This document shows positions 3-2,204 of a stretch of DNA of 21,476 nucleotides, piece by piece (position 1 is the first letter of the stretch; each line of letters begins with the position of its first letter). The DNA is from Candidatus Thorarchaeota archaeon (GTDB lineage Archaea; Asgardarchaeota; Thorarchaeia; Thorarchaeales; Thorarchaeaceae). Both the position numbers and the translations under genes were made by a program. Where the stretch lies: contig JBHLRQ010000051.1 of the NCBI GenBank assembly GCA_048882385.1, positions 1 through 21,476 of the forward strand. The letters are read 5' to 3'. The notes under the pieces are model-generated. The model saw only the letters and a list, made by a program, of their open reading frames with translations. It was not told where the DNA came from and searched no databases.

Positions 3-725
3 TTCAAGAAGAGTGTGACGTTTGTCATTGACTATTCTGGTAGTATGCAAGCACAGAACAGAATACGAGCTGCTGTGAAAGGAGCACTTGAGATTCTTCA
101 CGAACAGGTCAATCCTCAGGATGCAGTTTCGGTGATTGTCTTCAACTCCTCATATAGAGAGCTTCTCCCACTCACAATAAAAGGCGAGCGAGAAGGGGAG
201 GACAATCCCATTGTGACGACTCTGCAGTCTCTGAAGTATCCAAACTATGCAACAGCTTTCTATGACGCCCTTGGAAGAGCGCTTGAGGAGCTAGAAAAGA
301 TCGAATCAAGCGAGCATCGATGGGTCATCGCACTCACTGATGGTCAAGACAACTCCTCGAAGAAGTACTCTCTTGATGTCCTTGAAGGAATTCTAACTGA
401 GAAGGACCGGCTGAAGAGAAAGAGACCTCTCACGATAGAGGGCTTCATCCGTGACCACCACCTTGATGTAAATCTGCTAATCATTGGTGTTGGGCAAGAG
501 CTCAGTGACAGAGCGGACACAAAGCATCGCATTCATTCCGCAAAAACAGGGAAACCAATCACAACTGAAGAGCTCTTAGAGTCAATTTGTGAAGGAATAC
601 CTCAGGGTCAGTACATCTCAGTCGTAGATAGCATGAACGTGAAACTGGATATTGAAAGAGCCTTTGAAAAGGTAGGTGTCATGATGGCGCAACTGGAGGT
701 TGGAGGGACTACTACGGATTACTAA
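3..725 (+). CDS. von Willebrand factor A (vWA) domain protein, 5' truncated by window edge
   Basis: Frame is open from position 3 (FKKSVTFVIDYSGSM). MIDAS DxSxS (DYSGS), T in YATAFYDAL, LTDG motif and IIGVG strand are all present. Confidence 0.9.
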   Translation, partial: FKKSVTFVIDYSGSMQAQNRIRAAVKGALEILHEQVNPQDAVSVIVFNSSYRELLPLTIKGEREGEDNPIVTTLQSLKYPNYATAFYDALGRALEELEKIESSEHRWVIALTDGQDNSSKKYSLDVLEGILTEKDRLKRKRPLTIEGFIRDHHLDVNLLIIGVGQELSDRADTKHRIHSAKTGKPITTEELLESICEGIPQGQYISVVDSMNVKLDIERAFEKVGVMMAQLEVGGTTTDY

Positions 726-734
726 GGATGTGGA

Positions 735-2204
735 ATGATAATGGCGCAAACACAAACCCAAACCAAGAAGAAAGGCAAATTCCGAACCACTGTAATCCTG
801 ACCTTTCTAGTAATTTCGTTAATTTCCCTTTCAGCAACTGGATTCATCTCATTAACCTTTGTCAATTTGATTGGAAATTCGACCACAGACCAGAGCTCTG
901 ACGCACTAGAAAGCCAGATTCAGACGAACATGGATCAGACAGCACAGAAGACAGCTCTTGTGATAAATCAGAAGCTAGCTAGTGCAGAGGGAATGATTGC
1001 AGCTGCTGCCCAAGAGCTAGAAGCTCTATTCGAAACCGACTCTCCGTATGAGTATAGAGAGGTATACTACGACCTGCTCTTTGAGAACGACACTGTCGCA
1101 CCGGCGCCATCTGATAATCACTATGATCCAAACTATGGTCTGAATGTATCTTGGACTTACAGTAGCTGGTATATCCAAGGAACTATTTCATCAGACTATG
1201 ATACATATGAGGCCACAAACGCAGACAAACTTGGGCGAGTTTCAAACATGGACTACATATTCAAGGCAATCCATGATCAGCTTGAGTTCAGATGGCTATA
1301 CATAGCCTTTGCAGATGATGGTCTGTTTATCAACTATCCAGGAAGTATCCTAGGAGAGATGACCGATCCCGCTAGACTGGCGAATCCCTATGATCCTAGA
1401 GGTGAAGACTGGTATCAGACAATCTGGGCCGGAAATGGTGATATGGTTTTTGTCGAGCCCTACTATGATGAATTTGATAATGTACTTCTGATATCAATCG
1501 GCAAGGTTGTATACCGAAACAGTATACCCTTCGCAGTGATTTCTGGTGATATCACTATTGAAGATATCAGGGATAAGATCATCAATGTGGAAGTGTTAGA
1601 AAGCGGTTATGCTTTTCTGCTGAGTTCCACTGGTCTCGTAATCGCTCATCCCGAAGTTGCAGACGAAGACTATGCTTCTGGATTGCCCCCACTCACGATT
1701 GTTGAAATCAATCCAGGTGGTTCGTCAGCTCTAACACAGACGAATATTGACCAAATAACCAATGTTGCTGCGGGAGCCACTGGGACACTTCGTTATACAA
1801 GAGCGGGCGAGGAAAACATCTTAGTGTTTACCCAGGTAGGCAAGGGTGATTACATCTGTGTAATTTCTGTACCTCTAGCAGAGGTGTTGGAGAGTATACC
1901 TTTGCTCGAAGCACGTATTGCAGATCAGAACACTGCGGCTGCATCATACATCATCCTGGTCACTTTAGCTGGTATTCTAATTGCAGGAGTAGTGGCTGTT
2001 GCCATTTCGAATACTATTACTAGGCCATTGCAGTATCTAATGAGCCTTGCAGAGAGAAATGTTGCAGCGAGGATTCGAGATCAACCACTGGATACAACTG
2101 ATCTTCAAGTCGATGCGACTTATATCGCTCAAGATGATGAGATAGGTGAACTTGCTCGAGCTTTCCAAGGAATGCTTGAGTCAATCCGTGAGGAAGAAGA
2201 ATAG
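735..2204 (+). CDS. Membrane sensor: TM - extracellular dCache_1 - TM - HAMP, no cytoplasmic output domain
   Basis: Basic N-terminus then hydrophobic TM1. Cache motifs YDPRGEDWY, EPYYD, SGDI and GYAFLLSSTGLVIAHP. TM2 (YIILVTLAGILIAGVVAVAI). HAMP (ITRPL...DEIGELARAFQGM) ends just before the stop. Confidence 0.88.
   Translation: MIMAQTQTQTKKKGKFRTTVILTFLVISLISLSATGFISLTFVNLIGNSTTDQSSDALESQIQTNMDQTAQKTALVINQKLASAEGMIAAAAQELEALFETDSPYEYREVYYDLLFENDTVAPAPSDNHYDPNYGLNVSWTYSSWYIQGTISSDYDTYEATNADKLGRVSNMDYIFKAIHDQLEFRWLYIAFADDGLFINYPGSILGEMTDPARLANPYDPRGEDWYQTIWAGNGDMVFVEPYYDEFDNVLLISIGKVVYRNSIPFAVISGDITIEDIRDKIINVEVLESGYAFLLSSTGLVIAHPEVADEDYASGLPPLTIVEINPGGSSALTQTNIDQITNVAAGATGTLRYTRAGEENILVFTQVGKGDYICVISVPLAEVLESIPLLEARIADQNTAAASYIILVTLAGILIAGVVAVAISNTITRPLQYLMSLAERNVAARIRDQPLDTTDLQVDATYIAQDDEIGELARAFQGMLESIREEEE

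Follow-up and report, generated by a model that had tools for sequence, protein, structure and literature searches.

The 21,476-nucleotide stretch analysed here (the window) is contig C51 (JBHLRQ010000051.1) of a Thorarchaeota genome (G000) of 3.7 Mb in 256 contigs, which is 95.3% complete. At its start lie the 3′ end of one gene, called A here, and the whole of a second gene, B. We read them, with a probability of about 0.8, as a conserved Thorarchaeota pair of paralogous Cache receptors, in which A carries an intracellular TPR–vWA output and the shared ectodomain is part of a dCache_1 radiation found mostly in Asgard archaea. An earlier note on the same DNA had described the two frames as a vWA gene next to a dCache gene that together resemble a split ectodomain of the calcium-channel proteins alpha2delta and CACHD1.

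The window opens inside a 5′-open frame of 240 amino acids (3..725) that stops at the TAA at 723–725. Its first 77 bases repeat the last 77 of another contig of the genome, C41. This overlap is exact, its words occur nowhere else in the genome, and 240 directed 77-mer matches from a contig end to a contig start occur in the assembly, which is what a k = 77 graph would produce. Across the overlap, the two contigs read as a single frame of 957 amino acids that starts at C41:22992; bases 3..725 encode its residues 718–957, the remainder lies on C41, and the last residues of the fragment on C41 are the first 25 of the window frame. The C41 part (742 amino acids) and the window part were used as separate search queries. 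Homologues of the C41 part are mostly 941–965 amino acids long, many of them exactly 957, and bear Pfam dCache_1, TPR and VWA; their source names are Thorarchaeota, which bears out the suspicion in the earlier note that the genome is Asgard. Among 201 sampled Asgard genomes searched at E ≤ 1e-40, a vWA orthologue was present in 30, namely this genome and 29 of the 43 others of its family (13 of the 14 of its genus), and in 0 of the 157 genomes from 26 other Asgard families. The vWA closes an open frame of 921–988 amino acids in 27 of the 30 matches, the three exceptions being this genome itself, one contig start and one split frame. In one genome of the same genus (G093:C93:10951–11656), two overlapping frames make up the A orthologue, which breaks inside the vWA through a frameshift or an assembly error. 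Because the orthologous vWA ends a full-length frame in related genomes and the 77-nucleotide overlap is unique, we regard the join between C41 and C51 as sound.

The vWA domain, previously taken for a gene of its own, is therefore the C-terminal domain of a 957-residue protein that is cut by the contig end, and the end assigned to the feature, 1670, falls inside gene B, which runs to 2204. Protein A consists of a membrane helix, dCache_1, a second membrane helix, a HAMP-like linker, about five TPR repeats and the vWA. On the C41 part, Pfam identifies dCache_1 (66.4 bits, residues 201–379) and several TPR families; on the frame in the window it identifies VWA_2 (1.2e-12, 48.8 bits) and VWA (2.4e-10). 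The metal-ion-dependent adhesion site (MIDAS), already described as intact, is confirmed by the invariance of its five residues (D10, S12, S14, T84 and D113 of the window frame) in 50 of 50 aligned orthologues. A profile of the vWA (A4) found no alpha2delta or CACHD1 in the PDB at E ≤ 0.01; it matched TRAP (2.2e-6), followed by ITIH, Bat and ANTXR2 at 0.003–0.009. On these comparisons, the vWA of gene A is not of the kind that is inserted in alpha2delta-like proteins.

Just two hydrophobic segments occur in A, at about residues 7–30 and 397–424, with none beyond (Kyte–Doolittle, window 19), and the second is followed by Arg/Lys-rich sequence. The Cache domain is reported to lie outside the cell in all characterized dCache_1 receptors (PMC8915833), and because the same would hold for A, its HAMP-like linker, TPR repeats and vWA would lie inside. 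Residues 425–957, including the TPR–vWA part, are accordingly predicted to be cytoplasmic, a placement that the earlier note had allowed for in a caveat and that hydropathy and charge favour. Neither A nor B has a kinase, cyclase or MCPsignal output domain (Pfam, E ≤ 1). One A orthologue, P0134, is named methyl-accepting chemotaxis protein (MCP) McpC by its source, yet its Pfam list is without MCPsignal, so that the name is likely to be an annotation error.

Gene B starts with the ATG at 735, 9 nucleotides after the stop codon of A, as had been noted. It has the layout of prokaryotic dCache_1 receptors, in which two membrane helices flank dCache_1 (54.8 bits, cut-off 45, residues 182–374) and HAMP follows the second (30 bits, cut-off 25). 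It lacks an output domain and ends eight residues past HAMP, in an acidic tail that 25 of 25 close orthologues share. Compared with bacterial structures, the ectodomain has about 100 additional residues ahead of the YDPR motif, and residues 95–218, which make up this extended part, are unmatched by MCP-type relatives of 600–700 amino acids. The mean predicted local distance difference test score (pLDDT) of the B model is 72.3, with most of the ectodomain at about 75–92.

The alignment of A with B covers 454 residues at 28% identity (E 1e-41); it begins at the first membrane helix, extends slightly beyond the second and marks the two as paralogues. A scan of one genome per species gave 80 loci, of which the 55 Asgard loci (L004–L058) were analysed and L059–L083, bacterial or fragmentary, were dropped. 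These loci share a gene order of a propeller/Zn-ribbon gene, A, B and a SpeA-like arginine decarboxylase (Table 1). A fused dCache–TPR–vWA frame precedes B in 46 of the 47 loci with at least 2,950 nucleotides upstream, and ends about −7 to +10 nucleotides from B, the spacing also estimated across 49 related loci. The adjacency of vWA and dCache, whose lack of conservation the earlier note would have counted against its reading, is conserved, as a fusion and not as a separate gene. The SpeA-like gene is present in all 46 loci with at least 1,900 nucleotides downstream, and the propeller gene in 43 of the 44 with at least 4,500 nucleotides upstream. The propeller/Zn-ribbon protein of this genome has no hydrophobic segment and is cytoplasmic; its gene is probably in the same operon as A.

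Table 1. Features of the receptor locus, of its surroundings on contig C41 and of two genes discussed in the text (plain positions are those of the window; L003 lies on C41)
Feature	Position	Strand	Evidence or remark
Assembly junction, equal to the last 77 bases of C41, same genome	1..77	.	
Gene A, 3′ end, vWA domain, residues 718–957	3..725	+	Pfam, read-through, orthologues
vWA MIDAS codons	D 30–32, S 36–38, S 42–44, T 252–254, D 339–341	+	orthologue alignment
Spacer between genes A and B, 9 nucleotides	726..734	+	frames
Gene B, 489 amino acids, ATG start; first membrane helix, dCache_1 ectodomain, second membrane helix, HAMP, short acidic tail	735..2204	+	Pfam, hydropathy
B, first hydrophobic segment, residues about 20–42, preceded by KKKGKFR	792..860	+	Kyte–Doolittle, window 19
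B, extended N-terminal part of membrane-distal module, residues 95–218	1017..1388	+	aligns with alpha2delta-1 VWA_N segment
B, YDPRGEDWY, residues 219–227, counterpart of bacterial YDPRxRPWY	1389..1415	+	HMMER alignment
B, second hydrophobic segment, residues about 403–426	1941..2012	+	Kyte–Doolittle
B, HAMP, residues 424–486, then tail REEEE	2004..2192	+	Pfam
SpeA-like biosynthetic arginine decarboxylase, 617 amino acids	2231..4084	+	NF003763 356.4 bits (cut-off 369); PDB 3nzp 1.1e-58
Propeller/Zn-ribbon protein, 480 amino acids, just upstream of A on C41	L003:6286–7728	+	propeller-like repeats, zinc ribbon, helical C-terminal part
Histone-deacetylase-family gene, further upstream on C41	L003:5131–6219	-	
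RACo-type corrinoid activator, further upstream on C41	L003:3487–5136	+	
Ferredoxin-type reductive-dehalogenase-like protein, further upstream on C41	L003:2052–3410	-	
PAS histidine kinase, further upstream on C41	L003:451–1980	-	
VIT + vWA protein, 672 amino acids, inter-alpha-trypsin-inhibitor-like layout	G000:C16, L084:634–2652	+	best match to inserted vWA
Un-inserted Cache paralogue, 444 amino acids, after alpha2delta-like gene	L089:3210–4544	+	weak VWA_N, 26.1 bits

With the whole sensor domain as a profile, the best PDB matches are bacterial 6iop (8.1e-13), 3lib (9.3e-12) and PctA (3.1e-11), and all matches cover solely the part after the YDPR motif. As bacterial domains outscore CACHD1 and alpha2delta-1, the core of the domain is not especially alpha2delta-like. 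A second profile (A5) was built from 57 Thorarchaeota N-terminal ectodomain segments, comprising those of B orthologues and A paralogues. It matched 13 distinct PDB sequences at E ≤ 10, all of them alpha2delta-1 (E 8.4e-4 to 1.6e-3). Positions 10–182 of the profile (173 positions) align with alpha2delta-1 64/73–242/250, from the long helix to YDVRRRPWY, which is the whole segment before the vWA. No bacterial Cache structure was matched at E ≤ 10, though these share the YDPRxRPWY core. We judge this match to be real, if not strong on its own, given its modest E values and the fact that it concerns in effect one family. The sensor domain is the only prokaryotic query used in the analysis that finds the VWA_N segment of alpha2delta-1.

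The likeness to this segment, which the earlier note had proposed, is confirmed only at the level of profile A5 (E 8.4e-4): Pfam VWA_N does not match A or B at E ≤ 1, and a profile of B orthologues only (A3, residues 95–232) finds no alpha2delta at E ≤ 10, its five matches being at chance level (trehalase, fusexin; E 0.36–0.63). Among the four segment pairings that had been offered, HMMER reproduces SNMDYIFK, RWLY..FINYPG and YDPRGEDWY and shifts the first by 6 residues. By VIA, the B model superposes on alpha2delta-1 over 295–327 residues as against 214–263 for bacterial ligand-binding domains, with Z of 18–22 for both. A and B each have one dCache_1 stretch, and Pfam identifies no second dCache_1 and no VGCC_alpha2 in either at E ≤ 1.

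Relatives of the sensor domain number 1,447, and Pfam scans covered 8, 35 and 20 of the 150 best representatives. The architecture of A is found in 33 of the 35 long representatives scanned. The N-terminal region is matched by 86 sequences, including the two of the window and some added orthologues; MCP-length proteins do not match it, and 6 of 6 checked carry MCPsignal. Relatives in the radiation reach 22–31 bits with Pfam VWA_N, below the cut-off of 34.7, and the prokaryotes named among the members that were looked up are all Asgard archaea. These patterns suggest that the ectodomain of A and B belongs to a largely Asgard dCache_1 radiation whose members share the extended N-terminal region, the VWA_N part of alpha2delta.

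Outside the window, three metagenomic proteins, P0290 (993 amino acids), P0351 (1,043) and P0354 (863), have two Cache domains each; a vWA is present in P0290 and P0351, and Pfam VWA_N matches P0290 and P0354 weakly. On P0290, positions 10–194 of the Thorarchaeota ectodomain hidden Markov model (HMM) align with residues 45–237, Pfam vWA occupies 234–405, and HMM positions 185–269 align with 414–498. This split alignment implies that the vWA is inserted after the YDxRxxxWY helix, and the layout of the three proteins appears closer still to that of the two-Cache alpha2delta and CACHD1. A search of a word-indexed protein set with residues 40–240 of P0290 returned, besides P0290, 19 proteins (P0410–P0428) of 569–634 amino acids and 45–59% identity, all with dCache_1 and VWA. 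NCBI gives an organism name for ten of the 19, in each case Asgard: Heimdallarchaeota, Hodarchaeales, Hodarchaeota, Kariarchaeaceae, Thorarchaeota or Promethearchaeota. The nearest relatives of P0290 that bear a name are thus Asgard proteins.

The proteins of this family (A6; loci L089–L094) begin with a membrane helix, the long N-terminal region and an invariant YDPRxRxWY, and a vWA with MIDAS follows directly. After the vWA come the rest of the distal module, with the equivalents of Y144 and D173 of PctA, the proximal module and a C-terminal anchor, with almost no cytoplasmic tail. The profile of the family matches CACHD1 at E 3.3e-42 in one stretch (156–477 to 177–537) that spans both junctions, and alpha2delta-1 at E 1e-34 (153–518 to 171–559); bacterial Cache domains match just the part after the insert (PctA, 6.4e-15). 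For a model of P0414 (pLDDT 85.9), Foldseek ranks 1–14 are all alpha2delta-1 or CACHD1 (E 4.4e-32 to 5.8e-23, TMq 0.56–0.65), and the next match is vWA-only (E 1.7e-17). By VIA, the model superposes on alpha2delta-1 over 453–506 residues (468–472 in most rows) with a root-mean-square deviation (rmsd) of about 4.3–4.7 and Z of 24.7–28.1, its residues 42–552 falling onto about 72–630 of the alpha2delta-1 chain in most rows. A protein-atlas search with P0414 gave a best score of 0.88, below the lead threshold.

Near-full-length colinear matches to the inserted proteins occur in 7 of the 201 sampled Asgard genomes, in two families, and an eighth is cut by a contig end. At one locus the inserted gene lies between a restriction-modification methylase gene and an un-inserted Cache paralogue, a context that argues against eukaryotic contamination. 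This Heimdall-type tandem of an inserted gene and an un-inserted paralogue echoes the A–B pair of the window. Queries with P0418 and P0414 did not find a vWA-inserted Cache gene in the genome of the window, at its completeness of 95.3%. B aligns colinearly with P0418 minus its insert, over P0418 residues 9–220 (30% identity) and 402–480 (28%). The inserted vWA of P0418 does not match the vWA of gene A at E ≤ 0.001, and its best match in the genome is the VIT + vWA gene on contig C16. Similar VIT–vWA-like frames of 620–700 amino acids occur in many genomes of the window’s family.

Three further proteins (P0382, P0314 and P0367) were recorded from eukaryotic sources: among them, the A-type layout of dCache_1 and a C-terminal vWA appears in protist transcriptome sets (Trimastix marina, Platysulcus tardus), and the dinoflagellate Durusdinium trenchii is the recorded source of a protein of 1,634 amino acids that combines two Cache domains with a C-terminal vWA. 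They may be genuine eukaryotic genes or culture contaminants.

We placed 146 ectodomain rows in a tree (LG+G4, quick search, SH-aLRT only), with vWA inserts removed and rows of fewer than 170 filled columns dropped. A single group of 21 rows (support 96) unites the vWA-inserted proteins; the second Cache domains of the two-Cache proteins adjoin it, and A and B fall in separate, well-supported groups elsewhere. The tree was built from rows other than eukaryotic alpha2delta or CACHD1 and says nothing on the direction of descent. On its topology, A and B are un-inserted relatives of the alpha2delta-like family and not its nearest un-inserted kin. The suggestion in the earlier note of a relative of the pre-fusion state survives to this extent, and in the colinearity of B with P0418 minus the insert; the genes are not immediate sisters of the inserted family, and they are not a split pair.

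The published account of dCache_1 evolution (PMC8915833) reports that every eukaryotic dCache_1 protein has the vWA insertion, and places the transfer of dCache_1 from bacteria, the insertion of the vWA and the nesting of two Cache domains around the last eukaryotic common ancestor; according to it, no bacterial donor group could be identified. The word Asgard does not occur in its main text. In its supplementary tables, Heimdallarchaeota B3_Heim is the one Asgard genome given with the amino-acid motif, and this is the NCBI organism name for P0414; the one dCache_1 gene entered for it in these tables, at 1,260 nucleotides, would be too short for the inserted protein of 595 amino acids and close to the un-inserted paralogue. 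A full-text search, with subscription journals outside its reach, found no paper that joins Asgard with dCache and VWA or with alpha2delta or CACHD1. We put forward, as a tentative proposal that we hold somewhat less probable than its negation, that eukaryotes inherited the alpha2delta/CACHD1 ectodomain from Asgard archaea and did not build it from a bacterial Cache domain at the stage of their last common ancestor, in which case A and B would be living relatives of the pre-insertion state.

The ligand site points away from the known amino-acid sensors. Their motif, dCache_1AA, is described as Y121, R126, W128, Y144 and D173 in PctA numbering, with R126 holding the ligand carboxylate (PMC8915833). 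HMMER aligns the bacterial YDPRKRPWY or YDPRVRPWY with YDPRGEDWY of B, which places Glu224 at the position of R126. This position is Glu or Asp in 45 of 45 B orthologues, and in A orthologues it is Glu in 28 of 31 and Gln in 3; it is Arg in 114 of the 165 rows of the wider alignment and in all 19 of the Asgard vWA-inserted family. The amino-group contacts, equivalent to Y144 and D173, persist in 26 of 26 B orthologues; among A orthologues, 29 of 31 retain the first and 31 of 31 the second. A and B hence do not carry the amino-acid motif, in that R126 is replaced; the remaining positions are for the most part retained. From an amino-acid sensor, an amine-sensing branch, dCache_1AM, is reported to have evolved, whose motif includes W155, F188, D235 and R103 of PctD (PMC10589655), and a member of it, 3lib, is the second-best sequence match to the sensor domain (9.3e-12). 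Because the carboxylate-binding arginine has become Glu or Asp and an arginine decarboxylase is encoded next door, the ligand of A and B is suggested to be an amine, for example agmatine or a polyamine, more likely than an amino acid.

We hypothesize that a small molecule binds the membrane-distal module and that the signal would cross the membrane through the second membrane helix and HAMP and alter which partner the TPR–vWA scaffold holds via its MIDAS site. A is read as a receptor with a scaffold output because it ends in two protein-binding modules and has no enzymatic output; its TPR–vWA part would be the intracellular output or adaptor module, and B may act as a co-sensor together with A. 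A complex prediction that combined residues 425–957 of an A orthologue with Mg and with the HAMP and tail (422–487) of its cognate B orthologue reached a score of 0.02, where the mark is 0.32, and was not used either way.

Among known systems, the dCache_1 receptors of bacteria and archaea (PctA, 5ltx; Mlp24, 6iop; Mlp37, 5ave; and the Methanosarcina mazei kinase sensor, 3lib) share with A and B the succession of a membrane helix, a double-PDC ectodomain, a second membrane helix and HAMP, and the fold of B superposes on theirs with Z of 19–21 and rmsd of 2.1–2.9. They differ in their outputs, as A has TPR–vWA and B none in place of MCPsignal, a kinase or a cyclase, in their carboxylate-binding arginine, which is Glu or Asp in A and B, and in the length of the ectodomain, to which A and B add about 100 residues before YDPR. 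With alpha2delta-1 and CACHD1, A has in common a dCache_1 and a MIDAS vWA in one polypeptide. In those proteins, however, the vWA is described as inserted in the membrane-distal dCache_1 module, where it splits the amino-acid motif (PMC8915833), whereas the vWA of A is C-terminal, behind the TPR repeats and predicted to be cytoplasmic, B has no vWA, neither protein has a second dCache_1 or VGCC_alpha2, and the amino-acid motif is broken. The Asgard A6 family resembles A and B in its extended N-terminal region, in its phylum and in being followed by a tandem un-inserted paralogue; unlike them, it has a complete amino-acid motif, carries its vWA directly behind YDPRxRPWY and ends in a C-terminal anchor, with hardly any cytoplasmic part. 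Membrane anchoring, TPR and MIDAS vWA also occur together in BatA/BatB-type proteins, the membrane vWA and TPR proteins of the aerotolerance operon. Their matches to A are weak (4jdu, 0.0042; 3ibs, 0.0092; NCBIfam TPR_BatC, 9.7e-4) and far below family cut-offs, and Bat proteins have no Cache sensor and a different domain order.

Several observations weigh against the reading of A and B as a conserved receptor pair with an Asgard-type ectodomain. The join of C41 and C51 is based on a k-mer overlap and on orthologues and not on a continuous read; the topology of A is a prediction from hydropathy and the positive-inside rule; and the HAMP-like label was given by position and pattern, Pfam identifying no HAMP in A at E ≤ 1. 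In L040, a complete Thorarchaeota chromosome (CP070658.1) and the sole exception among the 47 loci, B and the SpeA-like gene are present with no A upstream, so B may function without A. Only close orthologues have the acidic tail of B; the tails of remote B-like proteins vary. The whole-domain profile scores CACHD1 at 2.6e-9 and alpha2delta-1 at 6.6e-5 or weaker, below bacterial chemoreceptor domains, and the proposed ligand is drawn from one charge reversal and the synteny with SpeA.

Three other explanations were set against the same evidence. The split ectodomain of the earlier note would require a separate vWA protein, secreted or on the cell surface, to join the dCache protein extracellularly in an alpha2delta-like assembly, a state of alpha2delta/CACHD1 before fusion. 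It draws on the adjacent frames with their 9-nucleotide gap, on the conservation of that adjacency, on the intact MIDAS and on the resemblance of the dCache N-terminal region to the VWA_N segment of alpha2delta-1. We consider it very improbable, because the vWA is the last domain of a 957-residue protein, following two hydrophobic segments, a HAMP-like linker and TPR repeats; 46 of 47 loci contain one fused frame, the vWA profile finds no alpha2delta or CACHD1 at E ≤ 0.01, and the inserted vWA of P0418 leads to the VIT–vWA gene on C16 and not to gene A. The fused architecture would be an artefact if the join were an assembly coincidence and the vWA frame came from another gene whose 5′ part is missing from the bin. 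The window does begin at a contig end, and graph branches outside the bin would be invisible; yet the 77-mer is present at these two ends only, the joined length of 957 amino acids is the modal orthologue length, the first 25 residues of the window frame close the C41 fragment, and same-genus genomes hold the whole gene in one frame, which makes such a coincidence more improbable still.

A greater, though still small, share of probability goes to the possibility that A and B are ordinary, horizontally acquired bacterial-type Cache sensors whose alpha2delta likeness is generic dCache_1 homology or chance. This would fit the best whole-domain matches, which are bacterial MCP domains with alpha2delta-1 at just 6.6e-5, and the marginal A5 match (E about 1e-3, in effect one family); Pfam VWA_N at E ≤ 1 and the B-only profile both come back empty, and neither A nor B is sister to the vWA-inserted clade. 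It fits less well with the fact that A5 finds alpha2delta-1 over 173 positions and no bacterial dCache structure at E ≤ 10, or with the MCP-type relatives checked (6 of 6 with MCPsignal), which have no N-terminal match. Relatives in the radiation approach the VWA_N cut-off (22–31 bits against 34.7), the Thorarchaeota HMM aligns with P0290 on both sides of the vWA (10–194 before it, 185–269 after it), and the named prokaryotic members looked up are all Asgard. On balance we prefer a conserved Thorarchaeota receptor pair within the Asgard radiation, and find a bacterial-type origin unlikely.

The four genes further upstream on C41 (L003:451–6219) show no link to the sensor pair.

The locus would represent an uncharacterized type of receptor, in which a Cache sensor has a TPR–vWA scaffold as its sole output and is accompanied by an output-less paralogue and an arginine decarboxylase, and this type is conserved across a Thorarchaeota family. 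If our reading is true, one Asgard dCache_1 radiation with a long N-terminal region holds both un-inserted forms (A, B and the Heimdall tandem paralogues) and vWA-inserted forms. The inserted family may then shift the ancestry of the alpha2delta/CACHD1 ectodomain to the Asgard archaea, and the question of where the gabapentinoid receptor, a major drug target, came from would become testable.

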